Origin: a virus
Taxonomy: Duplodnaviria > Caudoviricetes
Length of the DNA stretch: 64,000 nt
Direction: 5' to 3' (one strand)
IMG/VR virus record: IMGVR_UViG_3300020037_002731
Location: 20,352 to 84,351 of that record
Shown here: one piece after another, positions 1-64,000 of the stretch
Layout: every line of letters begins with the position of its first letter
How positions within the stretch are numbered: the stretch's first letter is position 1
Translations under genes and position numbers: made by a program
Notes under the pieces: model-generated
The model's input: only the letters and a program-made list of their open reading frames with translations
What the model was told of the DNA's origin: nothing
The model's database searches: none

Positions 1-906
1 AATAATATCTTCACCTATATTAGCATTATTTTGTTTACCTTTTAAAGCATCTTTAAACGAATAATTATCTTTATAAGCAGATTGCACCATTTTAGAAGGT
101 ATACTTAATGGTTGTAGTATGTTTAAAGGATTATCTTCTTTCTTAGCTTCCTCTTGTGATAATGATGGATTTTTAAAAGCAACTGGACTTCCTGCATTTC
201 CTACACTTAACAATCCTTGTTCAAATTTACTCCAAATAGAAGGTTCTATTTTACTTGAATAACTACTGTTTTTAATAAGCTCTAATTCTTTTTGAGTAAA
301 TCCTTGTAATGTTTTTAATCTATCATTAGAATAATCTGTATCAAAGGTAGGTTTTCTTTTAAATATATTTTCTACTACTTTATCATTAATTCTTTTATCA
401 TATTCTGCAACATTATTAGGATTCATATTTGTAGATGAAATACCCATGCTTCTACTAAATTTAGGCATAGCTTCATCTATAAATCTATCCTTACTATATT
501 CTTTTTCAAATTGTCTTTTATCTTTTAACCATTGTGGAGCTTCTGCTGTTATAACTACTTCTTTTAAAGGTGTAGCAATATAAGTATCAGAATTTTTATC
601 ATAGCTCGTTAACTTCCCACTATTATACAAATCTCTATATTCAGGAGAACTTATATCATATTCTTTAATTTGGTTATCCTGATTAACTTTTACTTTTTTA
701 TTAGGAGGATAAACACTACCATCACCCGCATATTGACTTGTAACAGGTAATGTTTCTACTAAACTATCTATACAACCATGACAACCTTCTGATAGTTTTT
801 GTTTAACCCAATTTCTTTTATTTGCAGGAATTATTACTTTATCTCCATTAGAATTTTCAAGTATTAATTCATTATGTTCCGCTTCTACGTTTATATTTTT
901 ATACAT
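1..906 (-). CDS. Polyvalent/cargo-associated protein, 5' part (runs off the left edge of the window)
   Basis: Not in the ORF track. Manual translation from ATG 906 is open to position 1: MYKNINVEAEHNELILENSNGDKVIIPANKRNWVKQKLSEGCHGCIDSLVETLP...YAGDG. Starts 4 nt after the 911 stop. Confidence 0.8.
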   Translation of the reverse strand, partial: MYKNINVEAEHNELILENSNGDKVIIPANKRNWVKQKLSEGCHGCIDSLVETLPVTSQYAGDGSVYPPNKKVKVNQDNQIKEYDISSPEYRDLYNSGKLTSYDKNSDTYIATPLKEVVITAEAPQWLKDKRQFEKEYSKDRFIDEAMPKFSRSMGISSTNMNPNNVAEYDKRINDKVVENIFKRKPTFDTDYSNDRLKTLQGFTQKELELIKNSSYSSKIEPSIWSKFEQGLLSVGNAGSPVAFKNPSLSQEEAKKEDNPLNILQPLSIPSKMVQSAYKDNYSFKDALKGKQNNANIGEDII

Positions 907-910
907 AATA

Positions 911-1993
911 TTAATTTTTAGGAATTACTAAACCATACTTTGCTGTAAATTGAGTATTACCATTTTTAATACTAACCCCATCTTTACCAATAGTTAAATC
1001 TATTCCGCCTTCTTTGTGTGTAGGATAGCCTTTTAAATCTTTAATTACTTTCCATTTACCTCCTTTAGTAAAGGCTGTAGCTAATCCTTTTTCAGCTTTT
1101 AATTTACCTTTGCAATCTATTTCAAGTAAACCTTCTTTTTCTAACTCTCTTATTTTAGCTTCTACATCAGATTCTTGTACTTCTGTAACTGTTTGTTTTG
1201 CAGTTGATTGTATAATAGATTTAACAAAGAATGTAACCCAGTTTGAATCCTTATTAAGTAACTGTAAAAATGAGCTTTGCTTAAAAGATTCATCATATTT
1301 ATTATGAATATCTTGTAATTTATTTTCAAGTGTATTATTAAATTTCTTATACCAATCTTCTTGAAATTTATTAAACTTTTCATTAGTTCCTTCTGAAATA
1401 CCTTCTTCATATGGTCTTACTCCATATTTCTTCTCAAATTCATCTCTTAGAGTATAATGTTTATCTATTCCGCCATCTTCAGTTAAAAGATTATAGTTTT
1501 CATTAAATAAATTTACTATTTCAGGAGTTAGATTAATAGTTCCAATAAGTTTACCATTAACAGATTTTCTATATCTTACTTCTTGTAATTGTCCAAAATC
1601 AAAAATCTTTTGGTCTGATAAGTCAATATCAGGTTTATCACTAATTTCATATACATAAAAAGTTCCTGTTTGAGGATGATTAGAAGCACTCCAGTTACCC
1701 ATTAAGGCTGCTCCAATAGATTTACTCGCTGAGGTTTCAGGTATTTGAGATTTCTTAAATCCACCATATTTAGAGGTAACTAATCTATGTTTACCTTCAT
1801 AATCTTCTACTTGTTCAGTAAAAGAAGTGGGTAAAAATCCAGTTTCATTTCCTAAATCAACATTAACTACTCTGTAAAACTTATTAGGTTTTGATACAAG
1901 AGATTGCTTATTAGCTAATGGTTTAGCAATTTGCTCTACAAATTCTTCTTTAGAATCATAGGTTACTCCTTTATATATATACTTACACGCCAT
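911..1993 (-). CDS. Polyvalent-type module protein with a putative R-S-E ADP-ribosyltransferase-like domain
   Basis: 360-aa ORF with FYRV...TSASKS...FYVYEI...QEVRY. The C-terminal THKEGGIDL resembles HEQGGI in the 940-aa cargo protein. Confidence 0.55.
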   Translation of the reverse strand: MACKYIYKGVTYDSKEEFVEQIAKPLANKQSLVSKPNKFYRVVNVDLGNETGFLPTSFTEQVEDYEGKHRLVTSKYGGFKKSQIPETSASKSIGAALMGNWSASNHPQTGTFYVYEISDKPDIDLSDQKIFDFGQLQEVRYRKSVNGKLIGTINLTPEIVNLFNENYNLLTEDGGIDKHYTLRDEFEKKYGVRPYEEGISEGTNEKFNKFQEDWYKKFNNTLENKLQDIHNKYDESFKQSSFLQLLNKDSNWVTFFVKSIIQSTAKQTVTEVQESDVEAKIRELEKEGLLEIDCKGKLKAEKGLATAFTKGGKWKVIKDLKGYPTHKEGGIDLTIGKDGVSIKNGNTQFTAKYGLVIPKN

Positions 1994-2712
1994 TATCTAT
2001 TATGTTTTTTAAAACTTCTATTTATTTGTTGCACTCCAGATTTAGAAATCCCATATAAAGGAGCTATTTCCTTATACATTTTACCTTGTTTTATAAGCTC
2101 AATTATTTCATTTCTTTGAGCCTCTGTCAATTTTTGTTTAGGAGAAATCTTATTGGTTCTTCTGGTTAAATGTTTTTCTTCCTCTTTTACAATATAATCT
2201 GGAATATTTTTCCAACTTCTATGAGCTTTAATTTCAGATATTGTAGTAATACCTACTTTATACTTTTCAGCAATTTCTTTCAAAGAGATATTAAAGGCAA
2301 TCATCTTCTTAATATCATAAATATCTTCTATTGGTATTTTAGAATTAGTTTGTCCTTCATTATAAAGCTTAATTCTTGTCTTAGACATTTTATCAATAGT
2401 AGAAGAATCAAATTCTACACAGTCTCCTCCTGTAGTTAAATTTAATCCATTAATATTATTACCTCTAAAACTGTCAAATTCCTTAACATATTTCTTTTCT
2501 AAAACATTAAGTTCCTCTCTTGTAAAATTTCCCTTTTCAACAATTTCAAAAGAATGATTTTCTACTCCATGTTTTAAAAAAGACCTATATAATAGAATTT
2601 GAGCCTTACAATTTAATTCTTTATATCTGTTAAGTCTATATTCAACATCTTTAGATTGTCCAATATAGATTTTATTAGTAGGGGAAATAACTTTATAAAT
2701 TCCTGATTTCAT
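1993..2712 (-). mobile_element. Free-standing GIY-YIG homing endonuclease with C-terminal HTH repeats
   Basis: GIYKV...KIYIGQS...R motif and two HTH-like segments. The true start is probably ATG 2712 because the track start (2745) overlaps the promoter -7 box. Confidence 0.88.
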
Positions 2713-2731
2713 TTTTAGTATATTTGAACTA

Positions 2732-2763
2732 CAAAGATACAACATTAATTTGTAATTTCCAAA
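2732..2763 (-). promoter_or_regulatory. Bacteroidota sigma70-type promoter for the GIY-YIG gene
   Basis: Minus strand TTTG-N20-TATCTTTG, matching the -33 TTTG / -7 TAnnTTTG consensus. Confidence 0.8.
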
Positions 2764-2781
2764 TTTTATTGAAAAAAGTTA

Positions 2782-4215: not shown

Positions 4216-7200
4216 TTATATTGTTACACAATTTGGGATTTGATCATATTCTTCTTGAGTAATATTTCTTAATTCATCAGGTTCTTGTGGAATACTTTCA
4301 TAATCTATAAAATCATCTAAATCAGAAGTATTATTAGAACTTAGTACAAATACATTATTAGTAGCTCTTGACATACCTACATATTTAAGTTGCTGTCTTA
4401 ATTCTAAATCTTTAAATGCATCAATAGTATCTGCTAACAAAAGTACTTTATTATAAGTTCCACCTTGAGATTTATGTATAGTATGTGCATACCCATAATC
4501 TAAAGTTTTCTTTACAATGTAATTACCAGTTTGATTTTTTAAATCTTTCATAAAGGCTAATTGACTTTGTAATTCTCTAGCTCCAGCAAACATTTGTGCT
4601 GCTTTCTTTCTGTTGCCAGTCTTCATAGCTATTGCACCTTCTTTATTCATTGCTTCTACTTTCTGTACAAATTTAAGTACTTTATTAGGATCTTCAGTAT
4701 TATCTACAATAAATACATACTTATTACCATCCTCTGAATTTAAAGTATTTTTAAGTACAACCTGGTATCCAGAATAACTTTCATTGATACTACCAATTTG
4801 TTTATTACTCTTTTTAGCACTAAGTACTTCATAATCTCCAGAATTAATAATTAATGGTTCTCCAGTATTATAATCTATATCAAAATTATCATATCCCATT
4901 AATATATCTCCAGGTACTAATTGTTCATTAGTGTTAAATAATATTCTTCTAACTAAAGTATTGTATTCTTTAACTATTTGATTAGTACCAGATAAAATTC
5001 TAAAGAATAACTTATTCTGTTTAAAATTATCAGAAGTAAATGCTGCACTAATTATATCATTAGCTTCTTTAGTACTATCCATGTACTGTACTCCAATTCC
5101 TTTCTCATTAACTTTACTAGTATAGGTAAAGTCTTTTCCATTTCTAAGGTTAGTACTTTCTTCAAGTATAGCATTATCTCCAGTTCTTTCAACTTTAGTT
5201 AATTGAATTTGTGGATTTTGATTAGTACTAAATACTTTACTAATATTTTTCTGTCCTACAGGTTTAATTTGTCCCTTATCCCCTACATAAATAACCTTAA
5301 TATTGAGTTCTTGTATTTTCTTTTGAATAAAATCATACAAAGAATCTGATACCATACTACTTTCATCAATAATAAGTAAATCTCCTCTTTGGATTTTAAC
5401 TTTATTTTTTTGTGCAAATTCAAGATCTCTAATATCATAGTTACCTAATTCATCAAGTCTAATATCAGGAGTTAATCCAAATAATTTATGAAGAGTAAGA
5501 ACTCTAGCATTAGGATTATTAAGCTTAGTTACTGCATTAGCTCTATGTGTAGGGGCAGTATAATAAGGGTATCTATGTTGAGAAGATAAGTACTTATCAA
5601 ATAATGATATTAAAGTAGTTTTACCAGTTCCAGCATATCCTGATAAAGTAATTTCTTTATTACCAGAATTCATGAACTCTTCAAGCTTAAGTAAAGCTTT
5701 TCTTTGTTCATTATTTAAAGCAAATGGTAAGTACAATTTATATCCACTTTTAAAAGTAAATTCCATTGGATTACCTTCAATAATTTCTGGCTCTTCTTGG
5801 ATATTTGGATTAGGTAATATCTCTTCCTGTACAGTTTTTTCAGATTGTGTAATTGGTCTTATAGAATACACAAATCTACTTTGATTTCCATTTACAAAGT
5901 TTGAACTAAACTTATTATTTATTGTAAAATCCTTCCAATGCTCAAATCCTTCATTTTTTGCAAAAGTATTAAGATCTTGAGATATTCCATTAATTTTAAG
6001 ATCTATTTCTGCACCTTGTTCATCATTAGCATATCCTTGCAAGTACTCAATTTTTGCTTCTCCTATTAATTTAATTTCAATTAAAGTCCCATCTGGAAGT
6101 TTATGAGTACCCTCTGATAACTTTTCTTTTCTTATTGTAGTTGTTTTAGTTCCTGATTTTATTTTCTCAATATTATCAGATTGCATTGGTAAAGATAATA
6201 CTTTTTCTGGAGATTCCAAAACTTCAGATCCTTCAATTCCTTGAATTATTTCTGGAGAAAGAACTATAGTTTCTTGATCTTCTGGAGAAATTTCAAATCT
6301 TTCTTCAGGTATTTCTTCTTCATTTGTCTTAGGTTCTGGATCTCCTTGAATATCTTTGTATTTTTTGCTTAATTCATCACTAAGAGCTTTATTTCCCTCT
6401 GGAGTATTAATCCAAGGTTTTAAGTACTCATTACTATACAATTCTATACTAAATCTGTACTCATGTACTGGTTTGTACTCTTTAGGTAAGGAATCTTTAT
6501 TAACATTAGATCTGTAATTATTAGAATTACTTATGTAGTTTCTAATAAATTCATTCTGCAATTCTGCTGAAGTTTTTCCAGTTAATTCTTTAATAACACT
6601 TTCACTAGGATTACTTTTAGCTAATTCAGTATTTAGTTTCTGTAAATTTTGAGCTAAGTTTCTTAACATTTGAACTGGAATAAATCTCATAAATGAGTTA
6701 TTTCCAAATTCCATGTTATTCATAGCTGCTTGATAATTCAATAAATCTGTAGCAAATTGAGCTATTTCAGGATTACTTGAATGATACATTTGATTAATAC
6801 TATCAATAAATACCTCACTTAATTCTTTAGTAGGAGTTGTAGTACTATCAAATTTAAGTATATGTAAGGGAGTAGTATTACCCTTATCTCCAGGACTTAA
6901 TGGTTTTAAGTACTTAATGAATTTATTCTGTTTAAATTCAGGATACTTAAGTAAATTCTTAAACTTAGTTGTAATTAAATCTTCTGAAGTAGTATCTTTT
7001 AATTGAGTAACTAATCCTGCAAATTTTACATTAGGGTTTAGTGCTTTGTACACTTTCATCTGTAAATAAGTACTTAAATTAGCTCTTACTTTAGGAGTAT
7101 TTTTAAAAGTACTACCTTTAAGTAATGATAAAGTTTCATTCTGAATATTCCTAAACATTTCAGTTTCTTGCAAAAATAAATTTCTAGCAATATCAAGTAC

Positions 7201-10200
7201 TTTTCGTAGATTTCTTACATTATTAACAATGTTCTTTTCATTTTGAAGTAACTTAACTGTATCAAATGGATTAGGTATTGGATTACCATTTTTATCTAAT
7301 TTAGGAATAGTTAGTTCATCATATGAATTTAAGAAACTTCTTGCAGTATCAAATGAAGATCCAATAATTCTGGTTAAAGTATTAAGTCTTGATACATTAA
7401 AAGCAAAACTACTTATTTGTTGTGCTTTTATGTACATTCTTAAAGCTTTTACTTGAATCTGTAAGAACTCTTGAGAGTTTTGATCCATTTCTAAAGCATC
7501 CCATAATTCTTTACTAGTTAAATTATTAGGCACTTCCTTATTCTTAAGTTTACTCATGTAATCATTAAGCAATGGAGCTAATTCTCTAGGTTTTAAGCTT
7601 CCAGCTTTAACAATAACAGGTTGTACACTTAAAGGAGCATCACCATCTTTAATATTAATACCTAATTGATTTAAGTAACTAAATATACTTACACTTCCTA
7701 CAAGCCAATGAAATGTACTAGCCATTGGATCTTTACTATTATCAATAGTAGTACTTACCTTTTCAGAACTATAGTTATTTTTAAGGTAAGTTACATCATC
7801 AGGAGTATTAAATGTCTTATAAGTTTCTCCATTGAATTGTATATAAAACTCTGGATTTAAATCAACTCTATTCTTAGTTAAGTTAGCTCCAGTACTTTGA
7901 GCTAGTACAGCACTTCCTCTTAAAGTAGTACTTGCAGTATTATCATCCCAAGCTTTAATAAGACCATCTGGTGTAAAAATATTGTAAGTAATTTTATCTG
8001 TACCTAGTATCTTTTCTATTTTCTCTTTACTTTCTTTAGTATCATCAGTTGTACTAGCTTGTTTAAAATACTTCTCAAGTTCAGGCTGTTGCATTACTTC
8101 TTCTAACTTAATAATAAGCCTGTTATTTAAAGCACCTTGAGATTCAGGACTTCCTTTTAGTATAAAATCATCTAATGTTCCAGGAAGATTAAATTTCTCA
8201 AGAACTTGTCTTGCTGCATAATCTCTAAGATCATTAATATCTTCATACCTTTTTTGTAAAGCCTCTTTTAAGTCTCTTCTAGTTTGTTTAAATAACCACT
8301 CAAAAGAATCTTTATCATCAATGTACCATTCATTAATTTTTCTTTGAAGTTTTAACTCTTGTACCTCTTTAAGAATTTTATCATATCCTAGTTCAGTTAA
8401 AGTTTTACTTAACTCTTTCTTTACATCTAGATTATTATTTAAATACCAATCTCTGTACTCTTCCCATTTATCTTCTGTTTCTGTAGCATCTCCATAGTAT
8501 TGCTTACCATGTCTTTCTTTACTAAATATAAATAAACTATCATCATCAAAGTCTTGTCCTGCATACAAAGTTAATTGTGGAGCAGCTATAACTATATCTC
8601 CCATGTAATCAGGTAAAATATCTACTATCTTACTTCTTCCCATGAAGTTATAACCTTGAGTAGGTACTCTAAGTGAAACTACAGTATCTCCTATTTTTAA
8701 TCCTAATCTTTTAGCAGTGTACCCTGAAATAACAATTTCTCCTACTGGATTACCATTTTCCCAAGTTACTTTTAAATCTGATACTGGATAATCATTGTAC
8801 TCATCACTATTTCTTTGTGAGCTAGGTATTACTTCTCCATTCTCATCTCTAATAGTCTGATATATGATAGGAGAACCCATAGTTAATTTAGCTCCACCTA
8901 ATTTATGTTGAAATGCATCCTTAAATCCAGATAAATATATCTGTTCTAACTTCTTTCTTGTATGTGCAAGATTTAAAGTGTATTCAGGAATTCCAACAGT
9001 ATCTCTAAGAAGTTCAATCATTTGCATATCAGAAGTAGTCTCCTCTATAATATCCCTATACTTTTGAAATACATAAGATAAATCACTCTTTAAATTTCCT
9101 TGTTCATCAATTAATTGTGAACTTAAAAAATCAAAAGTATTATTTCTTAATTGTACTTGAATATCTTGAATCTCTTCTTTTAATAGATTATTTTTTTCAT
9201 TATCTAATAAACCAAAATCTATTAATTGTTGAATTTGAGTTAGCCAAGGTACTCTAGTCTTATCTTTACTCTCCTTTAGTACTTGTTCTCTTCTGTACTT
9301 TCTAGGTACTTCATATATTGTAGGATTTTCTCCTGTTATTGGAGTACTTTTTCCAAAGAATATTTTAGCTGCACTTTTAGGTACAATTAAATCTGCATTA
9401 TTATTTTGAAGTAATTTCCACCTGTTAAATCCTTGTTCTTGACCTTTCTTAGCTACCCATTCTTTACCATTCCAATATCCAGTATCCCAGGGAGTTAAAG
9501 TATAGATACTCATTTTATAGTACACTCTATTACCTAAAGTATCAAATCCAGCAGTTACATGCTTTTGAGATACAAGATCTAATGATTGTATTTCTTCTCT
9601 AGTCAAAGATACTGGATTTCCCTCTGCATCTAATTCCTCTCCATTAAGTTTCTTTAATGCAAGTTTTTGCAATTCAGTTAAAGTACCTAAAGCTTTTAAA
9701 TCTTTAAATTTACCCCTAGGACTTTGAAATACTTGAGCATCATCAGGATTTATAGGTTTCTTATAAAACTTCTTAGCTTCTTCACCTTCTGGCTTAGTCC
9801 ATTGTACTTCTCCACTTTCAATATTAACCCAAGCTTCAGTATTTTCTGTATAAATAATCTTATCATTTCCTTCTCCCATATCTTTACCACTAGCATTAAG
9901 AGAACTTTCTCTTTTAAATCTTTCAGAAAATAAAGCATTATAACTCTTTTCCCAAGTACCTAAATCTATGTACTTAAGTTGAGATAGATCTCCTTCTGTT
10001 AATTGTTGTACAGCAGAGTTATTAATAAGATTATTTAAGAAGAATTGATACAAGTATTCCTCTGTAAATTCCATTCCTTTAACCTCATGTTTCTGTATTT
10101 GAGAAAGAATATCTGCCTGGATAATAGGAAGTACAACACTTTCAAAGTGAGTATTAATATCAGCTTGAGTCTTAATTTTTTCAAATATTTCAGGATGATT

Positions 10201-13200
10201 ATTAATTACTGGTAAGTATAACCATATTGGTACAGTTACTTTACCATAATCTCCTTGTAATCTCTTGTATTCTTGAGTAAATAAGTTCTTTAAAGCTTGT
10301 ATTCCATCAGCACTAATCTTTCCTTCTTCATACAAGTTTCTAAATGGAACTGTAACTCCATAAAAAGATCTTTTATCACCTATAATACTAGGAGCAGTTA
10401 TGTAGTACCCATTTTTATCTCTATTCTGAAATAATCCATGAAGTACTCTAAGTACATCTTGAGCATCAGAATCTTTGTAAGTTTTACCTTCTTCAAAAGA
10501 ATTATCTCCTATGTAAAATATCTCCAAGTTTTGGAATCTTCCCTTTATTAAATCTGTATTATCTCCAAATAAGAAATTATTAAATTCCAGGTATTCTCCT
10601 TTCTTAGTACTTACTTTTATATTTTGAAGTGTTTCATATTTTTCAGATAACTCTTTTAATAATTGTGAATAACTACTATAAGGTACATAAGTGTATCTAT
10701 TAGTGTTATCTGAAGCTCTATAATTAGGAATAATAAAGTTCTTACTAAATTGAGCATTAGCATTAGCTATTGCTAATAATCTTCCAGATAAATTACTATC
10801 TAAGAAAGGATTTCTTATTTCTGTACTTTCTTTTGAATTACCAGTATTTTTAAATAAAATATCTTGTAACTTAATTAAATCTGCACTAGTAATATCTCCC
10901 TGTTCATTCTTTATAAGTTCTCTAAGTACTAATGAATCTTCATCTGTATTATCAAACATTACTTCTAAATAACTTTCTTCTAATTCAATACCTAAAGAAT
11001 TAAATATCTTCTTAACTACAGTACTTTTATGTAAATTTCCTTTAATAACATTACTTCCATCAACAACCCATTTATCTGATACAGGTTTATCTTCAAGGAA
11101 AGGTACTAGATTTTCTAAATTGTATTGAAGATCTTTTCTGAATTTTTCATCTTGTAATAATTTATCATCTATTACTAAGCTATAATTAGTACTCCAATTA
11201 TCAAAAGTATAAATTCCAGCATCATGTTTATTAGTTTTCTTAACAAGTACTTTCTTATCTTGAGTAAATACTGTTACATAAGGTAATCTAGCTAACTTGA
11301 ATTGATTAACAAACCTAGTTAAAAACATTTCATCCTGAAAAGTAATTCCTTGAGGAGTTTCTTTGCTGTATTTTTTTTCTGTATTTAATTTATTGTATAA
11401 AGCATTAATTTCAGGATTTTTAGTTCCTAAAGCTTTAATTGTACCAAGTACTTTATTAGCATCTTGATTAGTTAAAATACTAAGAAGTTGATTATATACT
11501 CTAGGAAAATTTACAGCAGTTTCTATTTCTTTACCATAGAAATTAACAGTGTAAATACTACTAGCTATGAAAGTTTTAATTTCAGAAGATACTCTATCTA
11601 GTGTATTTACTTCAGAATCTAATCTATCATACTCCTTCATATCCTTATCTACATCAGTATCAAAGTTTTCTTCTTCTTCTGTAATAGGATTATATCTTAA
11701 ATATTTTAAATATTTTTCAGCTTCACTTTGAACTAAAGCTTTATTATTTTTAATACCAAAGTTATACTTCTTAAATAATTTCTTTAGTTGATCTTTCTCA
11801 AACTCTGAAGTTTTAGAATTAATTAAAGCTAAATTAGATTTAGAAAAAGGATTGTATTCTTCAATTAAATCATTTATAATTGTATTGATACTCTTAGTAT
11901 TATCTAAAGAACTAGCTTTAGCAGTAATTAATGCTATTAAGTTTCTGCTCTCTTCAGCACTTAATCCACCTACTAATTTAGCTTTAACAAAGGGACTAAT
12001 AGGATTACTTTTATTAATACTTGAATTTACAAAAGCTCCTCTATCAATTTTATTGAATAAATCTATTGTCTTTACATTACCTGTAAAGAAATTAATAATA
12101 CTGTCAAATAAATCAAATATAACTTTTTTCCAAGGTTTAGGTTGATTTAATTCTTTATTATTTCTCTTATCTGCATACTCATCTGATAATTTTTCTTCAA
12201 ATACAAGATTTTCAATATCTTTTCTTGAAATAATTTTATCCTTAAGTAATTTAATTAAATCAGGTCTTTTGCTTAAAAGATCTTGTACTTCTGAATTTAA
12301 TTGTTCAGGACTGTAATTTAATTCTTTACTTTTAGCTTTTAAGTATCTTTCTTGTTCTTGAGGACTTAATACAGTACTAAATACAGCATGGAAAGCTTCA
12401 TGATCTACATCAAGATAACCCATTTTTTCTGAAATATATACTGCATTATCTCTATAAAATCCTACAGGAATTCCAATTACATTCAACTGATCTAGTACTC
12501 TTTCTATTCTTTCTATACTTATTCCTGAAGGAATTTGAGATAATAACCTAGCTCTAATTTCATCATAAGTTTTAGGTTCTGAACTTAATTGAGATTCATC
12601 AGTGTAAATTTTAGTTTTATTAAAGTCTTTATTACTTTCATTCCAATCTCTAATTAATTCTTGAATTTCTTCTGGAGTGTATCCTGCTACAATAGCACTA
12701 TCTATTATATCTTGAAGTTCTGAAGAGTATTTAGATTCTACTTTAGTTTCTTTAATATCCTCTTGTATTTCCTTTGTTTCAGTAGTTTCTTCAGATATTT
12801 TTTCTTCTTGCTGTTCATTAATAGTTTCTTGATTTAAAACTTTAGGATCAAATTTAAACAATAAAGTATAGTTCTTTAGTACTTCAGGGTTAACTCTAAT
12901 ACTAAATTGATCAATACTAGCATTTGTAGGATCAATACTTTGTCTAAAAGAATTTTCATCAATTTCTTTAATCTTATTTTTAATACTAGCATTAATAAAA
13001 TTAATAAGATCTACTTCAGTCCAATTAGTTATATCAGGTAAAATAGTTCTATTAGTAATCTTATTTCCAATACCATACCCTAAAGCTAGCTGCATTTTAT
13101 TGCCAGCTTTATCATTATGTACAAATTTAATTACATCTCCTGGTAGTGAAGCTATCCAAAAGTTAATATCATTGGTAATTAAATCAGCTTGTTCTCTTGT

Positions 13201-16200
13201 AATATTAGGATTAGCATCAATTTTAGCTTTAATGTCTTTAATGTTCTGTAAAAAATCAGTACTTGGTATTGGTTTAGCTTGAATAGGTAACCATCTTCCT
13301 AAACCATTAATAAGTTTAGCAAATACAAAGAATGATTTTCTAAATCTATTATCTTTATGAAATTCATACTCCTGATCTGATAAGAATGGAATACCAGTCA
13401 TATCTTTACCATTAATACTTTGAGTTCTAGATACTTCAGATACTATAGGAGAATCTTTAAAAGCACCTTCAAATAATGTAGAATCTAGATCTATAGAAGG
13501 TTCATCCCTTGGTATCCATGATACTTCTCCACTTAAATCAAAATCTACTGCTCCTTTAGGTAATGGTACTTCTGGTAAATTTTGAGTACTAAACCACTTA
13601 ACTAAATCATCATTAAATCTCTTTAATAAATCCCAATTAGCTTTAAATGTATCAAGTTCTGATTGAGTAAAAGGTTTACTTCCTAACTTTTCATCATAGT
13701 TACTAAATACTCTATTAAATTCAGTTAGAGTCCATTTAGCATCATTAAAATCTATAGTAACTCCATTAGCATCTACAAATAAATTAGGATTATTTATTCC
13801 AGTAATATTTCTTCCTTCTTCTGGTACTTCTCCTGTTTCTGGATCTGTAATATCTAAAAGAATATCTATATCATATCTACCTTGGAGTTTAATTTCTTTA
13901 TTTCCAAATAAAGTTCTTTGACCATTTTTTTGTTCTTCTTCAAGATTAGCATTAACTTGTGATTTATTTACTTTAATACTAACATAATCTTTCCAGTTAG
14001 GAAGTTTAGCTATTTTATTAATTAATTCTTTAGTTTTAGCAGAAAATCCTCTATTACTTGCATACCCTTGAAACCACATTCTAGTAAAATGGTTTTCTCC
14101 ATAAAGTACTTGCTTAGTTCCTTTATTAATATTAGTTTTACCTGGCTCATAGTACCCATTTTCTTCAGTATAAGTATTACCTTTTTCATCTTCCCATACT
14201 CCTTGAGGATTTACTTTTACTTTAATTTTACTTCCAAGTACTCCTTGTTTTTCTATTGTAATATCAAAAGAGTCTGTAACTATAGGAGGTTGAGGAGGAG
14301 TAGGTGGTGTTGGAGGTTTTTCTTCAACCTTTACTTCAGGTTTAGGAGGATTTTGTTTAGTTTCAATCTTTTCTAAGTTCTCTTTAATACCTTTCTCTGA
14401 AGTTAAATCATTGTAAGCTTTAGTATATATCTCTCTTCTTTTATTTAATTTAATAATATCATTAACACTTTCTATTAAATGTTTATGATGTACTGGATTA
14501 GTATCTTTAATTTCCTGATTTGTAGCTTCAATATATTCTTCTTTACCTTTTTTATCCAAGGTATTAAAATAAATATTATTAAAACTAACTCCAAAAGAAT
14601 TTAAATCAGCATTAATCTTTAGTATTCTATTATTAGTATTATCTAATGAACTAGCAGTATGAGTAGCTAAGTTCTGTAATTCTTTAAAAGTTAAGTACTT
14701 AGCAGTATCTTTCTTTTGATCATAAGGATTAGGTAAATTTAGTAGTACTGCATCATTAACTTTCTTAATATTATTAATTTCTTTAACTAAAGAATTTATA
14801 GTATCATTACTGTCCCATCTTTGAGTATCTGCTATAGTAACATCATTACCAAAAACTTGATTTAATTCCTCTGCACTAGCATTTTTTAATGAATTAACTC
14901 TATCTATTAAAATACCTAAAGTTCCAGCTTGTAAATTCTGTTGAACTAAAGATACTATAGAACTATGTCTATCATTGAAATAATTAAATTTATCTCTGTT
15001 AGTTATAGCCTCATCAGCTAATTGTTGATAAGTTAAAGTTCTATCAGTTTCTAATAACTTATTTTTCATAACCTCATTTAATTGAGGTAACATCTTATTA
15101 GCAAAATCTAACTGAAATTTCTTTCTTTCAGCATCACTTTTAGCATTTCTAAAATGTCCTAAAGTTCCTGCACCACCACCTATTAAACCTCCAATTACAG
15201 TACTTTCTAGCCCTTCCTTGGTAGTTAATCCATCATACAAGGCTTTACCTATACTTTCAAATATATTAGCATTATTACCATTGTACTTATTATCTAAGTA
15301 ATCATTAATGGCTGCATTACTAGCAAACTGTAAATATTCTTGACCTCCTTCTGTAACAATACTTTCAGTTACAGGATTTTTAACTTTTCTAAAAGCTTTA
15401 GCATACTTACTTCCAGCATCTTCTATTAATTTACCATCTTTTAGTACAGTCTTAAGTCCTGCTTCTACATCATTAGCTCCAGGTCTAATTAAATTCTTGA
15501 AGATAAAAGTATTAGTAGGAGCTAGTACTGCCATGTTAATAGCAAAGTTAGCTAAACTACCAGAGTTAGCTATTTCTTCTTTTTGAGCATCACTTAAATC
15601 ATTTCTATCTTTTAATGTTTCAAGAATTTGATCTTTAGTTTGTCTAGCTTCTAAGGAACTTTCCATAGTAGCCATAATAGTACCTAAAGTTAATTGAGCT
15701 TTAAGATTAGGACTTATTGTATTAATACCTTTACTAGCTGCTTGTACTGCTGCTTCAGCATCTTTAAATTTAGTTCCTACTGAAGCTGCTTTACCTAAAT
15801 TAAAAGCTTTAGTTAATGCTGCACCAGTTAAAAAACTTCCTGCTGTATAACCAGCACCACTTAATAAAGCATCAAGAAAATGTCCTGAAGCTAAGTTTTC
15901 ATAACTAAAGAAATTACTATCTTTTTGAGCTTGTGATTGATATACTTTAAAAGTATCTTGAAACCAGTTATTAATAGGATCTACTACTCCTCTGGATATT
16001 TCATTATCAAATATTTCAGATAGTCCATTTACATAAGCAGTTTTAGCTGATTTACCTTTAGTCAATTCATCTATTTGTACAAATGGAACTTTTAAAGCTC
16101 CATAAAATATAGCTGGAATTTCTAATGCTGCATTTAAAGCACTACCAGCAAAATGCATACTTGCATTTCCTAGTACATCCCAATTACTTTGATTACTATG

Positions 16201-26663: not shown

Positions 26664-27385
26664 TATTCTTCTGATTTTAATTTATTAGGTAAGGCTGGAG
26701 CTGAATCATTCCTAGCATTGTTCTCTTTATCTTCATAAGCTATTCCATAAAATTGAGCTATTTCAATACAAGTAGCTTTTCTAATTGCATCCCATAAATC
26801 TCCATGAACATTAAACTCTAGCTCTAAATAAGGACTAGGACAAGTTTCTTGTATTAGTACTCCACAAGAGTCATAAGTTTTGCAAGTATTGAGTAATTCT
26901 ACTTCTATAGGATCTTCTGCTATCAATCTTAATTTAACTCCTAAGATATTTCCATTAACTATTAAGTAATCATTGCTTTGAGTAGCATCTGGAATTGGAG
27001 ATTTATATTTCTGATTTCTTGAATTAATCATTTTATCAAGATCTACTATTTGAATTATTTCTCCATTATCTAGAGTATAAACTTTAACTGCTGGTTTTCC
27101 AGTATTATAGTCCATACTTGCAGGTAATTTAAATTTAGATTTAGAAACTATTTGATTAAATACTATTCCACAGCACTCTGAAGTATCTGATAACTCCATA
27201 GGAAAACAATAGATTGTTTGAAATGCCGAAGTATTAAATAAGTACCCTTTATTTAATTCTCTTCCATATATGAGGCATCTTTTCGATTTTATAACACTGT
27301 AAATAAATCTATTAGACGGTGTACTATCGTCTGAATTTAATTTTAATTCATTCCTTATGGCGTAGATTGCTTCAGAAACTTTCAT
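26663..27385 (-). CDS. Tail ring protein (ring 2-like)
   Basis: 240 aa, MKVSEAIYAIRNELKLNSDDS...RFIYSVIKSKR, typical of crAss ring proteins; synteny. Confidence 0.65.
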   Translation of the reverse strand: MKVSEAIYAIRNELKLNSDDSTPSNRFIYSVIKSKRCLIYGRELNKGYLFNTSAFQTIYCFPMELSDTSECCGIVFNQIVSKSKFKLPASMDYNTGKPAVKVYTLDNGEIIQIVDLDKMINSRNQKYKSPIPDATQSNDYLIVNGNILGVKLRLIAEDPIEVELLNTCKTYDSCGVLIQETCPSPYLELEFNVHGDLWDAIRKATCIEIAQFYGIAYEDKENNARNDSAPALPNKLKSEE

Positions 27386-43703: not shown

Positions 43704-45173
43704 CTAGCTAGTAGGTCTAAATTTCAATACACCAGTTGCACTTACATCTTGAATCCAAGGACTACATCTGTCTCTTGCTACAAGTGTGTAAGCATCTTCA
43801 GTTACACTCATTACTTGACCATTCATCTGCCAAGGAGCACTAGTTCCATGCAAGTAACCATACTTCAATGAATTCTGCCTCTTAACAACCTTAAAGTTTT
43901 GTTCAAGATCACCAGAGAAATCCATTACATAGAAGTTAGCACTTTGTGAAGGGAATCCAGTACTTGTAGCTCTCATAGTATTTGTCAAATCTGTATCCAG
44001 ATAAGGCAACATTCTAAGGGTTACAGTTCCACCATTAACAAGGTTATAAGATTTAATCTGATAACCATATCTCAAGTTCATAGGATCAGCACCTTTCAGT
44101 ACTTCACTTGACAACATTACAAACTTATTAGTACTTCTCTTCATAGCTGCATCAAACAACATGAATCCATACTCACCAGTCAAGAGTTCAATATTCCTTT
44201 CAGAAGGTTTCTTTCTTCCAATATAAATATCCAAAAGGTAATCAGATAAAAGCTTTTCAGAAAACTCTGAATAAGTTTCAACATTGCCCCAATTCTCAAT
44301 CTGGTATTTCAAACCATATCTTGACCTAGTAAGATAATTACTATCTCCATCAAGATTGTTAGCTCCCCTACCATAGAACAAATAGTTACCTCTGTTCATA
44401 TCAATGGTTTTCCAGAACTTAATCTCTGCTCTGTTAATCCATTTACTATCCACTACTCTAATTTCCTTACCAGTTTGAGGATCTACTTCAACCATGTCAA
44501 AGTTAAGAACCATATCATCTACATAACCAGTAACTTTAGCTTGCCATCTCATCATATCACCAAGAGAATCCTGGAGAGTGATAATACCATCATGCTTAAT
44601 TTCTGATTGCAAAGAAGAACCTTCAGGATAAAGATTGTGCATACTTACATACTCTGAACCAGCAGCTAAAAGTGCAGTATCATAGTAAGCAGCAGGATCA
44701 TCAGTTACAAGTTGTACAAAGTACACAAATCCACCTGATTCAGGATAAGGATCTTGTATTGTACTAATTCTAATCAAAGATTCTTTATCAGTACTGATAA
44801 TTTCACCTTTGCTGAACCATTTTTGATCAAGTTTAATCTTGAAATAAGTTCCATCAATACCTGGAGTACTAGAACTTTCAATGTTCTCTACTACTCTAGC
44901 AGGAGGAGCATCAATAGCTTGTCTCCATTGCCATGTATCACTTTCACCTTTAAGAATATAAGGAGTTCCTCTACCACCATTTCCACCAAAGGAAAGTTCA
45001 GCAAGGGGATCACCTACATACCTCATACTTGTAAAAGCCTTCCTAATTGCAGTTTCTACAAAGAAAGGATTAATTTGTGCATAATTAATAAGGTGGTTTG
45101 TATCCACCATGCCTGAAAGTCTTGGACTTTCACGAACAACCAGTTTATGACTGGTATTTAAGGGAGTTGCCAT
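43704..45173 (-). CDS. Major capsid protein (HK97 fold, crAss type)
   Basis: 489 aa; SGMVDTNHL N-terminal motif; between scaffold and terminator. Confidence 0.88.
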   Translation of the reverse strand: MATPLNTSHKLVVRESPRLSGMVDTNHLINYAQINPFFVETAIRKAFTSMRYVGDPLAELSFGGNGGRGTPYILKGESDTWQWRQAIDAPPARVVENIESSSTPGIDGTYFKIKLDQKWFSKGEIISTDKESLIRISTIQDPYPESGGFVYFVQLVTDDPAAYYDTALLAAGSEYVSMHNLYPEGSSLQSEIKHDGIITLQDSLGDMMRWQAKVTGYVDDMVLNFDMVEVDPQTGKEIRVVDSKWINRAEIKFWKTIDMNRGNYLFYGRGANNLDGDSNYLTRSRYGLKYQIENWGNVETYSEFSEKLLSDYLLDIYIGRKKPSERNIELLTGEYGFMLFDAAMKRSTNKFVMLSSEVLKGADPMNLRYGYQIKSYNLVNGGTVTLRMLPYLDTDLTNTMRATSTGFPSQSANFYVMDFSGDLEQNFKVVKRQNSLKYGYLHGTSAPWQMNGQVMSVTEDAYTLVARDRCSPWIQDVSATGVLKFRPTS

Positions 45174-49595: not shown

Positions 49596-51782
49596 TTATC
49601 TAGGATGTTGTCTAAATACTGTTTTATTCATGTACTGATCCCATACTTTATTATTTCTATTTTTATTTAATAATGATTCAGCAAATTTAGCAGCTTGAGC
49701 TATTGGATCATTTTTATCTGATGTAGTTTTAATCTTTCTTTTAGCTGTAGCTTCTTTATACAATAAGCATCCCCTAAATGCTGTTACCCTATCTGCATTT
49801 TTCTCTCCATCATATTCTAATAGCTCTTCAATTAAACCTAAATCTTTAATCCTTTCTAGTCCTAGTATTTCTCTAGTCATATTTCCTTCAGCATCATATT
49901 CATTACCTATATTTTCTAATAAATATTTTACTATTAAATCATCTCCATGATCTATAATTTCAGCAGTAGGATGATAGCCTTTTCTTCTTTTTACTTTACT
50001 ATCTCCAATAAGTCCTTTAATTTCATCCATCTCATCCTGTAAAACAAATTCTTTGTTTTTATTAATGTGATGTGTAATAATACCTATGTTAGCATTCTCT
50101 ACTAAATTTTTACATCCAGGATAGTATTGACTTAAAAATAAACTAATATCATAACATTCTTCTACCTTATCTCTTCTTCCTATATAACTTGCTACTATTT
50201 CATTTTTAAAATAATGTTTATCTGTAGCATTATCTTGAGATATTTTTAAAGTTCCAGGATCGTTTTTAAAAATATAAGTAACGAATAAAGAATCACTTGT
50301 TGGAGCTACATCTTGATCTACACTATCTGTACTTTGTAAATATAAGTTTTCAATAGTATTATCTGAAACAGGAGGTTCATAAATCCATATTACTCCCTCA
50401 CTTCCATTTTGACTTGATAATTTAACAGGATAATCATTAAATGGATGTTTCTTATCATGTAATGGTTTTGAAGGAATTATTTTCCCATTATCATTTTGAG
50501 TCTTAATTGCATATCCATACTTATAATCTCCATAAAGTATTAATCTATTTTTATGTGCAAGTAAAAGATCTTTAGGAAATCTTGATCTACCTCTTGATAA
50601 AAATGCCTCACTTGGCTTTATACAATTTTGAGTAATCTCTGTAATATAAAATGAAGTACTTGTTTTCTTCATTTCATTTCTATTGTAAGCAATATAATCC
50701 ATTGCACAATAAATATCCAGTCCTTTATTCTTAATTAATATATTCCAATCTTCACTATTCCTCAACCAATTAATCTGATCTTCTGAAGGATCATTTATTA
50801 TACTATTTCCATATTGATCTACAAATGGCTCATAGTACATAAATCTTGGAATAAAATATCCACAAGTCTTGGGCATTGCATCATCAAACCAAACATTTTC
50901 AAATTCTTTAAAACCATATAGGGCTGGTTTAGTAAATATCTCTTTCAGTCCTTGACAATCATCCAAATCTCCCACACTTCCTGCTGCACAAAATAATCCT
51001 GTTGTAATAGCTCCTTTCTTTAAAGCTGGTAATAAATAAGCTACAGTATCTAAAAAGTTATTAGCTACACCAGGTTCTTGATAATCAAACAAAGTAGTTC
51101 CTCCACCCACACCCTTTGTTGGGTTATCTTTAAAATTAACTTTTCTTACTTCACTTAATTTACCCTTTGTTAGCTTTTTTCCATTATCAAAAACTTCATA
51201 AGCCATTCTAATTCTCTTCTGTGTATCAGGGCTTCTATTTTTATAAAATGCTGTATGTTCATTTAGATTGTCTAAATAATCTTGAAGCATAGTCCATGCT
51301 TTATCTCCATGATCTGCTAAATAGCTTCCTACATAATTCATACTTTTTTTATGAAAATGTAAATTCCATAAAATAGGAATCATAGCCTTTAAACTTGCGC
51401 CTACCTGTCTAACTTTTAAAGATACAAAATGTTCTTTATCTCTTTTGCAATTATCAATTTGTTTAAACCAATCTGCATCTAAATCAAGAAACTTTGGAAA
51501 AGTATAAGAGTTAGTACTTTCTTTTGTAGGAATAGGGCAATAGTTTAAATATAAATAATGTAGCCCAGAAACACTTTGATTTCCTATTTCTAGTCCATTT
51601 AGTATTTTATCTTTTTCTTTAGTCCAGTACTCATTAAATCCAGGAGTACCTTCAGGGTAAGGAGTATATTTACCTAACTTTGAAAAGGTAATTGCTGCTT
51701 CTCTAAAGACATCTGTATCTTTCCATAAACTTTTACCTCCTAGTCCATTGTAAGGATAGTAATTTGATTGCCATAAACTCAT
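49596..51782 (-). CDS. terL: Terminase large subunit
   Basis: LHYLYLNY, LKVRQVGAS (Walker A), RNase H-like nuclease motifs DSVD...DRV. No intein. Confidence 0.93.
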   Translation of the reverse strand: MSLWQSNYYPYNGLGGKSLWKDTDVFREAAITFSKLGKYTPYPEGTPGFNEYWTKEKDKILNGLEIGNQSVSGLHYLYLNYCPIPTKESTNSYTFPKFLDLDADWFKQIDNCKRDKEHFVSLKVRQVGASLKAMIPILWNLHFHKKSMNYVGSYLADHGDKAWTMLQDYLDNLNEHTAFYKNRSPDTQKRIRMAYEVFDNGKKLTKGKLSEVRKVNFKDNPTKGVGGGTTLFDYQEPGVANNFLDTVAYLLPALKKGAITTGLFCAAGSVGDLDDCQGLKEIFTKPALYGFKEFENVWFDDAMPKTCGYFIPRFMYYEPFVDQYGNSIINDPSEDQINWLRNSEDWNILIKNKGLDIYCAMDYIAYNRNEMKKTSTSFYITEITQNCIKPSEAFLSRGRSRFPKDLLLAHKNRLILYGDYKYGYAIKTQNDNGKIIPSKPLHDKKHPFNDYPVKLSSQNGSEGVIWIYEPPVSDNTIENLYLQSTDSVDQDVAPTSDSLFVTYIFKNDPGTLKISQDNATDKHYFKNEIVASYIGRRDKVEECYDISLFLSQYYPGCKNLVENANIGIITHHINKNKEFVLQDEMDEIKGLIGDSKVKRRKGYHPTAEIIDHGDDLIVKYLLENIGNEYDAEGNMTREILGLERIKDLGLIEELLEYDGEKNADRVTAFRGCLLYKEATAKRKIKTTSDKNDPIAQAAKFAESLLNKNRNNKVWDQYMNKTVFRQHPR

Positions 51783-52727: not shown

Positions 52728-52751
52728 AACTTATTCTTTAAATTTTAATTG

Positions 52752-52841
52752 CGGAAAATATAGGATTTGAACCTATGAATCCCTTTTGAGGATTGCTTCT
52801 TTAGCAAAGAAGTGAGTTAAGCCATGCTCCCCCAATTTTCC
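52752..52841 (-). tRNA. trnS: tRNA-Ser(GCT)
   Basis: Acceptor GGAAAAT/ATTTTCC, anticodon arm CTTCT-TTGCTAA-AGAAG, long variable arm, GTTCAAAT T-loop, G73. CCA not encoded. Confidence 0.92.
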
Positions 52842-52846
52842 TAATG

Positions 52847-52917
52847 AGTTAGATACTAGATTTGAACTAGTGTAACTAGTTTTGCAGACTAGTGGTTAGC
52901 CACTCACCCAATCTAAC
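52847..52917 (-). tRNA. trnC: tRNA-Cys(GCA)
   Basis: Acceptor GTTAGAT/ATCTAAC, anticodon arm CTAGT-CTGCAAA-ACTAG, TTCAAAT T-loop, U73 discriminator. Confidence 0.92.
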
Positions 52918-58256: not shown

Positions 58257-58257
58257 C

Positions 58258-60309: not shown

Positions 60310-60331
60310 AATATTTTATTTTAAATTACTA

Positions 60332-60586: not shown

Positions 60587-60600
60587 TATTTTTTTTTTAA

Positions 60601-61682: not shown

Positions 61683-61704
61683 ATTTATCTTTATTTAAAA
61701 ATTA

Positions 61705-62399: not shown

Positions 62400-62614
62400 T
62401 TCTTAATTAAATTTTTTAAAAACATTTTAAACTCTGTAATTCCAAAATCAAAGTTATTGATACTGAAGTACTTATCTCTGTAATAATTAAGATGGAATAT
62501 GTTTGTTACTGGATTGTGTAAATATTGTACTTCAGCTTTATTCTTAGTTAGTAATAATTCTTTAATTTCCTGTAAATCTTGTTCTTCTTTATTCATTAGA
62601 ATAGTTTTGATCAA
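62396..62614 (-). CDS. Hypothetical protein
   Basis: 72-aa ORF. Confidence 0.45.
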   Translation of the reverse strand: MIKTILMNKEEQDLQEIKELLLTKNKAEVQYLHNPVTNIFHLNYYRDKYFSINNFDFGITEFKMFLKNLIKK

Positions 62615-63059
62615 ATCTTACATCTAGTCTAAAAAATAGATTTTCTATCTTACTATTTGTTAAATGTGTAACAGGGTTAAAACCTTTAATGTGAAATCCT
62701 TCATTTTCTGATTCAAATTCTTTAATCAAATCATTAATTTGTCTTTGTAATTTCTGTACTTTTTCTTTCATATTACTTTCTTTTACTTCTTTTTTCTTTG
62801 TAAGCTCTAAATATCTTTTATCTATAAACTCTTCTCCTACTCTACCTTTAAACCCTTTAATATCATATACTGGGTATCTAGTATCATCCCATTCCCCATA
62901 CCAAGTTTTCTTTTGATTTGGATTTACCCATATGTAAGAATCTGTTAATACTTCATATTCTTGCTCTCCATTTGTAATAATATCTCCTTTACTAAAACTA
63001 CTGTATTCAAATACTACTTTGTTTTCTTCTAATACTTCTGTTACTAAATTAACTGTCAT
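62589..63059 (-). CDS. Hypothetical protein
   Basis: 156-aa ORF with an A-rich leader. Confidence 0.55.
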   Translation of the reverse strand: MTVNLVTEVLEENKVVFEYSSFSKGDIITNGEQEYEVLTDSYIWVNPNQKKTWYGEWDDTRYPVYDIKGFKGRVGEEFIDKRYLELTKKKEVKESNMKEKVQKLQRQINDLIKEFESENEGFHIKGFNPVTHLTNSKIENLFFRLDVRFDQNYSNE

Positions 63060-63305
63060 TTCTTTTTAACTTTAATTATTATACTGTTTGCCCTTCGCAA
63101 ACTCAAACCCCTGGCTCTCAAACCTAATGTTAAGCCAGATTGAGCACTCTTAACAAAATTGGAGTTTTTAAGTAAACTACCACAAAACCTTTATTTAAAT
63201 AATTTTCACATTGACAGACATCATCCAACTTTTATTAGGGAATGTCTGGAGTCCTTTTAGCTTAAAGTACTAAGGAAGAACACTTCAATAAAGAAGATTT
63301 TTTTA

Positions 63306-63764
63306 TTATTTATTTAAATGCTCAATAGCACTAAGAAGAATATTTTTATTTTCTTTAAGTAACCCAATTCCAGAATTACAAGCATAACATAATAATCCTC
63401 TTACTTCTCCTGTCTTATGATCATGGTCAACTACTAAATTATTATAAACATCCTTACAAATTAAACATTTACTTTCTTGATTTTTTAATAAAATATTATA
63501 GTCTTCTAAGGTTATTCCATAATTATATTTTAAAGTACTATTCTTTTTTAATTGTTTTCTATCTAATCCTTTAATTTTCTCTTTTTTAATTTCACTCTTA
63601 GAGGATAGTCCTTCTCTTTTTCTCCTTCTACTTTCTTTTCTTTCTTCTACTGAACATTTCCTACAATATACTGATTTGCCATCTTTTTGAGATTTATTAT
63701 TATTAAAATTACTTAATAACAAATTTTCTTTACAACAAGGACAATATTTAAATTCTATTTCCAT
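63306..63764 (-). CDS. Endonuclease VII-like (His-Me finger) nuclease, probably homing
   Basis: CPCC...YCRKC Zn ribbon; YGIT...CLIC...VVDHDHKTGEVRGLLCYACNSGIG. Confidence 0.9.
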   Translation of the reverse strand: MEIEFKYCPCCKENLLLSNFNNNKSQKDGKSVYCRKCSVEERKESRRRKREGLSSKSEIKKEKIKGLDRKQLKKNSTLKYNYGITLEDYNILLKNQESKCLICKDVYNNLVVDHDHKTGEVRGLLCYACNSGIGLLKENKNILLSAIEHLNK

Positions 63765-63801
63765 TTACTCACACAAGATTTGTTATATTAAAATTCTACT
63801 G

Positions 63802-63833
63802 CAAAGATACAGCTTATTTTTGAAATAACCTAA
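63802..63833 (-). promoter_or_regulatory. Bacteroidota-type promoter for the EndoVII gene
   Basis: TTAG-N20-TATCTTTG(CAG). Confidence 0.75.
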
Positions 63834-64000
63834 TCTGTACTTTATGTACCTGATAAGGTATAATTTCTTTAATTTTAAGGAATTAGTACCTTAAAGGGTA
63901 TAAAATTAGCTATTTAAAAATAAATTTGAATAAATAGACTTTATATATCCTAAAAATTCTTCTTCTACAAAATCACTCTTCATTAAGTTTACTCCACTAC

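Follow-up and report, generated by a model that had tools for sequence, protein, structure and literature searches.

CG is nearly absent from the phage genome

The question raised by this stretch of phage DNA is why a single dinucleotide, CG, should be almost missing from it. The stretch (64,000 nucleotides, referred to here as the window) comprises bases 20352-84351 of the linear, 84,351-bp virus record IMGVR_UViG_3300020037_002731, which is a fragment with a CheckV completeness estimate of ~48%. Counting bore out what the original prediction, made by eye from the sequence, had noticed: the window holds only a few dozen CGs (48, where base composition predicts 1,328; symmetrised odds ratio, hereafter CG ratio, 0.035), and GC is common (1,434 copies, ratio 1.04). 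Its more specific observations held as well, there being exactly one CG, at position 7205, in the 12.2-kb putative RNA polymerase gene (4216-16422; 231 expected, with 235 copies of GC), and arginine being encoded almost solely by AGA or AGG (864 of 873 codons). In the whole record there are 68 CGs vs. ~1,700 expected (ratio 0.039), and every 4-kb bin is depleted; ~96% of CG has been removed from the phage genome.

This loss (the purge) is not an effect of codon usage or AT-richness. CG occurs 9 times at codon positions 1-2, 25 times at positions 2-3, and 26 times across the 3-1 boundary between codons, where synonymous codon shuffling, which preserves both proteins and codon usage, predicts 349 ± 15; the depletion thus withstands the codon-position control that the original prediction had proposed. 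As a ratio of observed to expected, the codon-boundary value is 0.078 for the record, 0.030 for PhicrAss001, 0.17 for FPSV-S29, 0.69 for cr10_1, and 1.02 for cr130_1, the last of which shows that the method is unbiased. The record therefore does not resemble the other AT-rich phages cr130_1 and cr10_1 after codon correction, a resemblance that the original prediction had named as grounds for abandoning it. Intergenic DNA is also depleted (8 CGs vs. 66 expected), as are the tRNA genes of the window, which hold 1 CG in total vs. ~6.5 expected from their own composition; for comparison, a tRNA-Leu of the non-purged phage cr130_1 holds 8.

52751..52917, minus strand: tRNA-Ser(GCU) and tRNA-Cys(GCA), called by ARAGORN

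ACG, CCG, GCG, and TCG are all reduced equally (0.03-0.07), the record has no copy of CCGG, and the surviving CGs have no common motif. There is no excess of TG/CA (1.00-1.01), AG/CT (1.33) and CC/GG (1.16) being elevated instead. A sequencing or assembly artefact was considered and rejected, the trait being present in independent IMG/VR, Logan, ENA, and GenBank records with reading frames intact.

CG loss is maintained at present

A near-identical relative, the mosaic IMG/VR contig IMGVR_UViG_3300020047_006610 (L001), was compared over window positions 46900-62100 and aligns in blocks of 7.6 kb (99.1% identity), 3.8 kb (90.8%), and 2.8 kb (80.8%). Of the 1,160 substitutions that separate contig and phage, those before a conserved G had a C allele in 2 of 86 cases vs. 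216 of 604 before other bases (p 8e-13), and a G allele followed a conserved C in 4 of 67 cases vs. 298 of 619 elsewhere (p 9e-13). CG-creating substitutions are under-represented ~15-fold (p ~1e-12); the CG loss is actively maintained at present. In well-aligned sequence, the CGs at which phage and relative differ pair with CA, CT, AG, and AG, so that these recent differences are mostly transversions and do not have a deamination spectrum.

Three partly purged relatives (L002, L003, L015) give a longer view. Their CGs comprise 86 sites private to one genome and only 9 shared ones, unlike the control word GC, which this genome retains at 154 of 247 sites. It follows that the CGs of these relatives are of recent origin and short-lived. 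Throughout the clade, mutation and removal are in balance, with the strength of removal differing among its members.

The 80.8% and 90.8% blocks of the mosaic contig span the terminase-portal region, and its terminase groups with those of L003 and L015, not with that of this phage. The mosaic indicates recent exchange of modules within the clade.

The purge follows phage lineages

The record is that of a Crassvirales-like phage, with a capsid, portal, terminase, ring, and cargo operon and a giant virion-polymerase-type gene; nearly all genes of the window are on the minus strand. Tail ring proteins 1 and 2 and the cargo protein are present as domain matches (CrAss_Ring_1, CrAss_Ring_2, and crAss_CARG1). 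The capsid and portal genes served as identity markers, and the large terminase was the basis for collecting relatives and building a tree:

43704..45173, minus strand: major capsid protein, crAss-type (PF23898 Crass_capsid, E 3.6e-64; phrog_11589)
46519..49245, minus strand: portal protein (phrog_6547, E 3e-110)
49596..51782, minus strand: large terminase (phrog_6681, E 6e-78)

The terminase tree (98 crAss-like loci and genomes) places the phage within the crAss-like radiation; no claim draws on the genomes G098 and G184, which are flagged as unpublished. The phage's terminase is 24-31% identical to those of named Crassvirales and clusters with those of uncultured relatives, to which it is 42-76% identical; a search of a phage collection gave no close DNA or capsid match to the record. 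The AT-rich clade that holds the phage has CG ratios of 0.04-0.41, three members being at ~0.04, five at 0.12-0.17, and three at 0.32-0.41, and its GC-rich sister is at 0.87. Other AT-rich crAss-like loci are mostly at 0.3-0.7 and GC-rich ones near 1. Whole-genome CG ratios of named phages were as follows:

DAC15 (B. thetaiotaomicron): 0.022
PhicrAss001 (B. intestinalis): 0.028
FPSV-S29 (a Flavobacterium phage, F. psychrophilum): 0.089
phi14:2: 0.46
cr10_1: 0.53
Azobacteroides phage: 0.58
crAss002: 0.72
cr130_1, with the same GC content as this phage: 0.88

PhicrAss001 and DAC15 belong to the same subfamily as phi14:2, and the nearest sampled relatives of PhicrAss001 have CG ratios of 0.65-1.18. 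The extreme state has therefore been gained or lost at least three times. The clade with the purge includes environmental metagenome records. Literature searches on CpG or dinucleotide depletion in crAss-like phages or in PhicrAss001 found no paper describing the purge.

The sampled Bacteroidia genomes do not have the trait. In 20-kb samples from 51 Bacteroidia genomes the CG ratio was 0.38-1.37 (median 0.87), with AT-rich members at 0.38-0.92 and AG/CT mostly below 1, vs. 1.33 in the phage; in 17 genomes from the family of a metagenome-assembled genome (MAG) titled Bacteroidaceae it was 0.64-1.26. With its own CG ratio of 0.04, the phage does not copy the dinucleotide signature of Bacteroidia. 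Unrelated phages of the same host genera are likewise undepleted: 1.06 for the temperate F. psychrophilum phage 6H and 1.18 for the B. fragilis phage B40-8. The trait follows phage lineages, not host taxa.

Domain searches for C5 (PF00145) and N4/N6 (PF01555) methylases found none in the record (~48% complete), in complete PhicrAss001, or in complete FPSV-S29. Separately, a 2.9-Mb Marinilabiliaceae MAG (G004) that holds the crAss-like locus L113 has 27 matches to the C5 cytosine methylase family, mostly full length, which is an unusually large set. Other crAss-like contigs (L097-L112, ~50-100 kb) lie inside MAGs labelled Bacilli, Mollicutes, Sphaerochaeta, Saccharibacteria, Lachnospiraceae, and Gammaproteobacteria; their odd composition has probably led to misbinning.

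Surviving CGs lie near homing endonuclease genes

The few CGs that remain in this genome are unevenly placed. Within 500 bp of three homing-type endonuclease genes the CG ratio is 0.19, vs. 0.033 elsewhere (p 8e-7). The genes and the adjoining clusters are:

1993..2745, minus strand: GIY-YIG homing-type endonuclease with a C-terminal helix-turn-helix and no CG (PF01541 and helix-turn-helix families; homologues in PhicrAss001 and FPSV-S29)
58..1988, no strand: main cluster of surviving CGs, 9 in the window, directly downstream of the preceding gene
27382..28086, minus strand: second GIY-YIG endonuclease, GIY-YIG plus NUMOD1 (PF01541, PF07453)
27227..27361, no strand: five CGs in a 135-bp stretch at the 5' end of the gene for tail ring protein 2 (PF25702), abutting the second endonuclease gene
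28521..29120, minus strand: third homing-type endonuclease, with 4 surviving CGs (phrog_314 homing endonuclease, E 8e-17)

The main cluster extends upstream of the window start, to a total of 19 CGs in ~3.2 kb of the record, and the third endonuclease has homologues with NUMOD domains in FPSV-S29 and PhicrAss001. This arrangement suggests that the clusters are DNA recently imported with mobile genes from less purged relatives and yet to be cleaned. A general rule that survivors cluster at homing endonucleases was rejected: the association holds in this genome, is weak in FPSV-S29, and is absent in PhicrAss001 and DAC15.

Other words are avoided independently of CG

Words other than CG are also missing from these phages. 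In this genome the counts, given as observed/Markov-expected, are 0/12.9 for GGCC, 1/84 for CTCAG, 0/19 for GGACC, 0/29 for GATATC, 0/17 for CTGCAG, and 0/12 for CAGCTG; CACAG (11/55) and ACATGT (0/11) are scarce too. Such scarce non-CG words look like footprints of specific restriction systems of the host. PhicrAss001 has 1/306 GATC, 2/325 CTAG, and 0/62 GGCC, and FPSV-S29 has 2/217 GATC. Site deletion is therefore a means by which these phages do escape nucleases, and it is natural to read the CG purge as an extension of that strategy to a word of two bases. PhicrAss001 preferentially retains CCGG and TCGA (18 each of its 87 CGs), which would fit protection of both words by host methylation. 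Among phages that retain CG, crAss002 (MN917146) has 2 GATC and 1 GGCC in 93 kb, and phi14:2 (NC_021806) has 0 GGCC and 1 CCGG in 100 kb.

The CG purge is nevertheless a trait separate from the avoidance of other palindromes. The possibility that it is part of a general palindrome purge was rejected, the two being uncorrelated; L004 (CG ratio 0.04) retains GGCC, and GATC and CTAG are avoided in L109, L110, and L116, where CG is at normal levels.

Other features of the phage

Elsewhere, the record has genes for a family A DNA polymerase and a ribonucleotide reductase as well as one of MazG type. The proteins scanned included no integrase, which is in keeping with a non-temperate lifestyle. The giant gene is a putative virion RNA polymerase:

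4216..16422, minus strand: giant gene of 4,068 amino acids, putative virion RNA polymerase with a C-terminal superfamily 1B (SF1B) helicase; DFDDD motif at residue 2624

Pfam AAA_30, PIF1, and UvrD_C_2 match residues 3569-4026, so that the giant protein terminates in a complete SF1B (PIF1/RecD-like) helicase; the remainder has no Pfam model. BLASTP matched the gene to the giant genes of FPSV-S29, PhicrAss001, and cr10_1.

Two relatives of the phage carry small genes with the Acb2/Tad1 hairpin domain of an anti-CBASS/Thoeris sponge family, according to precomputed Pfam annotation (L002, 3654-3965; L009, 7879-8217). A conserved pair made up of a ThiF/E1-like gene and a metalloprotease gene occurs in two purged phages that are distant from each other, PhicrAss001 (MH675552, 81394-83798) and FPSV-S29 (MK764449, 64736-66341), and BLASTP found no such pair in three Suoliviridae genomes.

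Discussion

The explanation to which we give moderate preference is that the near-absence of CG is a real trait made and kept by natural selection on double-stranded phage DNA, in the form of restriction-site avoidance of a two-base word imposed by a DNA-level reader of CG. As restriction-site avoidance implies, the short word is under-represented beyond composition and coding. The evidence from partly purged relatives speaks for a reader of DNA: at their codon boundaries, the lowest values are those for TCG (0.14) and CGA (0.20) on the sense strand, so the DNA would be read on both strands, with a mild dislike of T before CG, and mRNA would not be the target. An RNA-level reader was rejected on the same data, which have no convincing asymmetry between sense and antisense contexts.

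The proposed mechanism is that an activity met during infection would read bare CG on DNA, in any flanking context and on either strand. Such a reader would most plausibly be a defence of nuclease type that only part of the host population carries. Any CG would put the phage at a disadvantage; changes that eliminate CG, at synonymous and non-coding sites, would become fixed, and newly arisen CGs would be lost again. We infer that the agent cleaves or otherwise inactivates DNA and that it is host-encoded, and the differing strength of the purge among close relatives (0.04 to 0.41) would reflect how often each meets it. Relatedly, one of the causes offered in the original prediction was selection by a CG-targeting restriction or defence system in the host lineage. 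The selection part of that proposal stood up, being supported by codon boundaries, non-coding DNA, recent substitutions, the depletion of all contexts on both strands, and the loss of restriction sites. The rest fared less well, as no CG-targeting system was identified and a tie to the host lineage was not borne out, the trait going with phage lineages and not with host taxa.

Several points weigh against our preferred explanation. We know of no enzyme of bare CG specificity, and none was found in this analysis. A host nuclease that cut every unmethylated CG would require the host to have a CG methylase, and the sampled Bacteroidia have no sign of CG decay; moreover, since unrelated F. psychrophilum and B. 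fragilis phages retain CG, a host-wide agent must spare them or be rare. A strict model in which one cut kills is at odds with the 68 CGs that persist. The CG ratio and the avoidance of non-CG palindromes are uncorrelated across 67 crAss-like loci (Spearman 0.06). Attempts to reach hosts did not help: a scan of 185,579 species genomes with the terminase profile gave only distant crAss-like contigs (≤32% identity), mostly in misbinned MAGs, and a BLAST comparison of 14.8 kb of the window with 401 Bacteroidia genomes yielded nothing beyond chance matches of AT-rich sequence, none of them spacer-like, a weak negative because two candidates were scored per genome. A comparable search with 20 kb of crAss002 against 133 genomes of the Bacteroidaceae-titled family gave nothing, and is a weak negative for the same reason.

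A more far-reaching claim, which we regard as tentative, is that an undescribed activity in Bacteroidota cells or in crAss-like phages recognises bare CG and inactivates CG-bearing DNA, strongly enough to have driven several crAss-like lineages, PhicrAss001 and DAC15 included, to rewrite ~100 kb without CG. If true, this activity would be a prokaryotic, DNA-level counterpart of the CpG sensing of vertebrate innate immunity.

Selection could also come from the summed effect of many ordinary restriction-modification systems, all of which a broad-range virulent phage would escape at once by dropping CG. A Bacteroidota strain has ~ten such systems, and the sites of many of them contain CG (CCGG, TCGA, GCGC, ACGT, CGCAG, and others). 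F. psychrophilum strains have ~10 methylases each, including an HpaII-like CCGG enzyme and a type III CGCAG system (PMC11837570). Consistent with such a sum, in nearly every crAss-like locus, even where depletion is mild, no CG word is avoided more strongly than TCGA, and other 4-bp sites have been completely lost from such phages (e.g., GATC and CTAG in PhicrAss001, as given above). On the other hand, ~two thirds of the expected CGs lie in non-palindromic NCGN contexts (ACGA, GCGT, ACGG, TCGC, TCGG, CCGC), each of which is depleted 5- to 60-fold, and this makes a sum of ordinary systems an unlikely cause. To our knowledge, REBASE has no 4-bp specificities that would cover all NCGN contexts, and sites of five to six bases are unable to clear every context. 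Further, the purge does not correlate with non-CG palindrome avoidance, and Rusinov et al. report that type I, IIG, and III sites are avoided little or not at all (PMC6286503).

It is also conceivable, but in our judgment rather improbable, that the reader of CG is a weapon of the phage's own, a nuclease that cuts CG-bearing DNA of the host or of rivals and to which a phage without CG is immune. Such a weapon would explain why the trait follows phage lineages while unrelated phages and host genomes retain CG. GIY-YIG genes are the candidates. Each of the four purged genomes examined has them (this record and PhicrAss001 two each, FPSV-S29 four, and DAC15 three), and they are absent from five complete non-purged crAss-like genomes and two unrelated phages (0/7); per 100 kb there are 2.7 of them in loci with CG ratios below 0.2 vs. 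0.3-0.5 elsewhere, a density five- to eight-fold higher in purged DNA. They are not exclusive to such DNA, however, since the domain profile finds them in seven crAss-like loci with ratios of 0.54-1.01, and their NUMOD and helix-turn-helix tails and their location inside structural operons are those of ordinary homing endonucleases. A GIY-YIG agent was retained only as a minor rival. In a BLASTP comparison, homing-type endonucleases alone were common to all purged genomes, and no other gene family was restricted to these; the contrast set was all Suoliviridae, so that the comparison is confounded by phylogeny. The PhicrAss001 gene annotated as an 'HKD nuclease' was dropped as a candidate, being a superfamily 2 helicase by Pfam.

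The other cause offered in the original prediction was mutational decay, in which CG is methylated by a CG-specific cytosine methylase of phage or host and the 5-methylcytosine deaminates to T. Decay of this kind is known in Mollicutes that have M.MpeI or M.SssI and in vertebrates. It could account for the finding that TG is what this genome most often has where a single relative has CG (38 of 86), and there is a slight TG/CA excess in PhicrAss001 (1.15) and FPSV-S29 (1.14); furthermore, the record covers only ~half of the genome, and a methylase could be encoded in the remainder. Nevertheless, the evidence goes against decay, which we consider improbable. The TG/CA excess that the original prediction expected is absent from this genome, and the 38:6 asymmetry of TG over CA on the sense strand is predicted under any model by synonymous third-position change. 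Methylase domains of the C5 and N4/N6 types are absent from the complete purged genomes of PhicrAss001 and FPSV-S29, and neither the sampled host-group genomes nor the temperate F. psychrophilum phage are depleted. The ratios reached by purged phages (0.02-0.04) are far below the lowest value among the sampled bacteria (0.38), and also below that of vertebrates, which is ~0.2. CGN arginine codons have been replaced by AGR, which deamination cannot produce, and the recent CG differences described above, CA, CT, AG, and AG, are not those of decay.

Avoidance of a CRISPR protospacer-adjacent motif (PAM) seems very unlikely. A host CRISPR-Cas system with an NCG-like PAM would be evaded by PAM removal, which blocks both spacer acquisition and interference, and the pattern in the phages is PAM-like in that CG comes with weak information in the preceding base, T being worst in partly purged relatives. 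PAM depletion known in phages is weak, however, selection per site being small, and no spacer matches were found in searches that scored two candidates per genome. Last, there is next to no prospect that the depletion is an ordinary one, due to AT-richness, codon usage, or a copied host signature: although phage CpG generally resembles host CpG (Forni et al. 2024, as cited in PMC11282364) and mild depletion (0.3-0.7) is usual in AT-rich crAss-like loci, the controls at codon boundaries and in intergenic DNA contradict it, AT-rich Bacteroidia differ from the phage in both CG (0.38-0.92) and AG/CT, and cr130_1 has a ratio of 0.88 at equal GC content.

Whatever reads CG, a branch of the crAss-like phages, two cultured Bacteroides phages included, departs 20- to 40-fold from sampled Bacteroidia for one dinucleotide, and crAss-like phages are reportedly the most abundant family of phages in the human gut. 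The trait is a handle for finding a new DNA-sensing defence or a new phage weapon. It also means that such phages will be misplaced whenever hosts are predicted or contigs binned by composition, the distant crAss-like contigs in MAGs labelled Bacilli, Mollicutes, and Saccharibacteria being cases in point.

Comparison with known systems

The purge can be set beside four known systems. As with restriction-site avoidance in non-temperate phages (Rusinov et al. 2018, PMC6286503), a short word has been selected out of a virulent phage genome, up to complete elimination. The differences are that the word here has only two bases, with ~1,700 sites gone in every context, and that the strength of the purge is unrelated to the avoidance of other palindromes across relatives.

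The likeness to CG-specific methylase decay, as described for M.MpeI of Mycoplasma penetrans and for M.SssI (Wojciechowski et al. 2013, as cited in PMC11282364), lies in a strong CG deficit in an AT-rich genome of prokaryotic type. Unlike the genomes in those cases, the phage has no detected methylase and no TG/CA excess, its sampled potential hosts are normal, its deficit is far deeper, and its arginine codons have gone from CGN to AGR.

Closest in logic, as a working model, is the CpG suppression of vertebrate viruses under ZAP or TLR9 (cited in PMC11282364), in which a virus likewise loses a dinucleotide that is read by a host sensor. Those sensors are confined to vertebrates, however, and ZAP reads RNA, whereas the contexts in the phage are symmetric on both strands. 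In addition, the purged clade has environmental records, and FPSV-S29, a phage of a fish pathogen, shares the purge.

Endonuclease II of phage T4 (DenA), a GIY-YIG enzyme, degrades cytosine DNA, against which T4 DNA is protected by base modification. By analogy, a loosely specific phage nuclease could destroy foreign DNA while the phage's own DNA is without its target, and the enrichment of GIY-YIG genes in purged genomes may be seen in this light. T4, though, does not protect itself by loss of a word, and the GIY-YIG genes here resemble homing endonucleases and occur in non-purged relatives too. The best-supported view is that bare CG in double-stranded phage DNA is under purifying selection, the most likely cause being an activity of nuclease type met in host cells. 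The purge is then a variant of restriction-site avoidance, and it is shared by other phages and not unique to the window.

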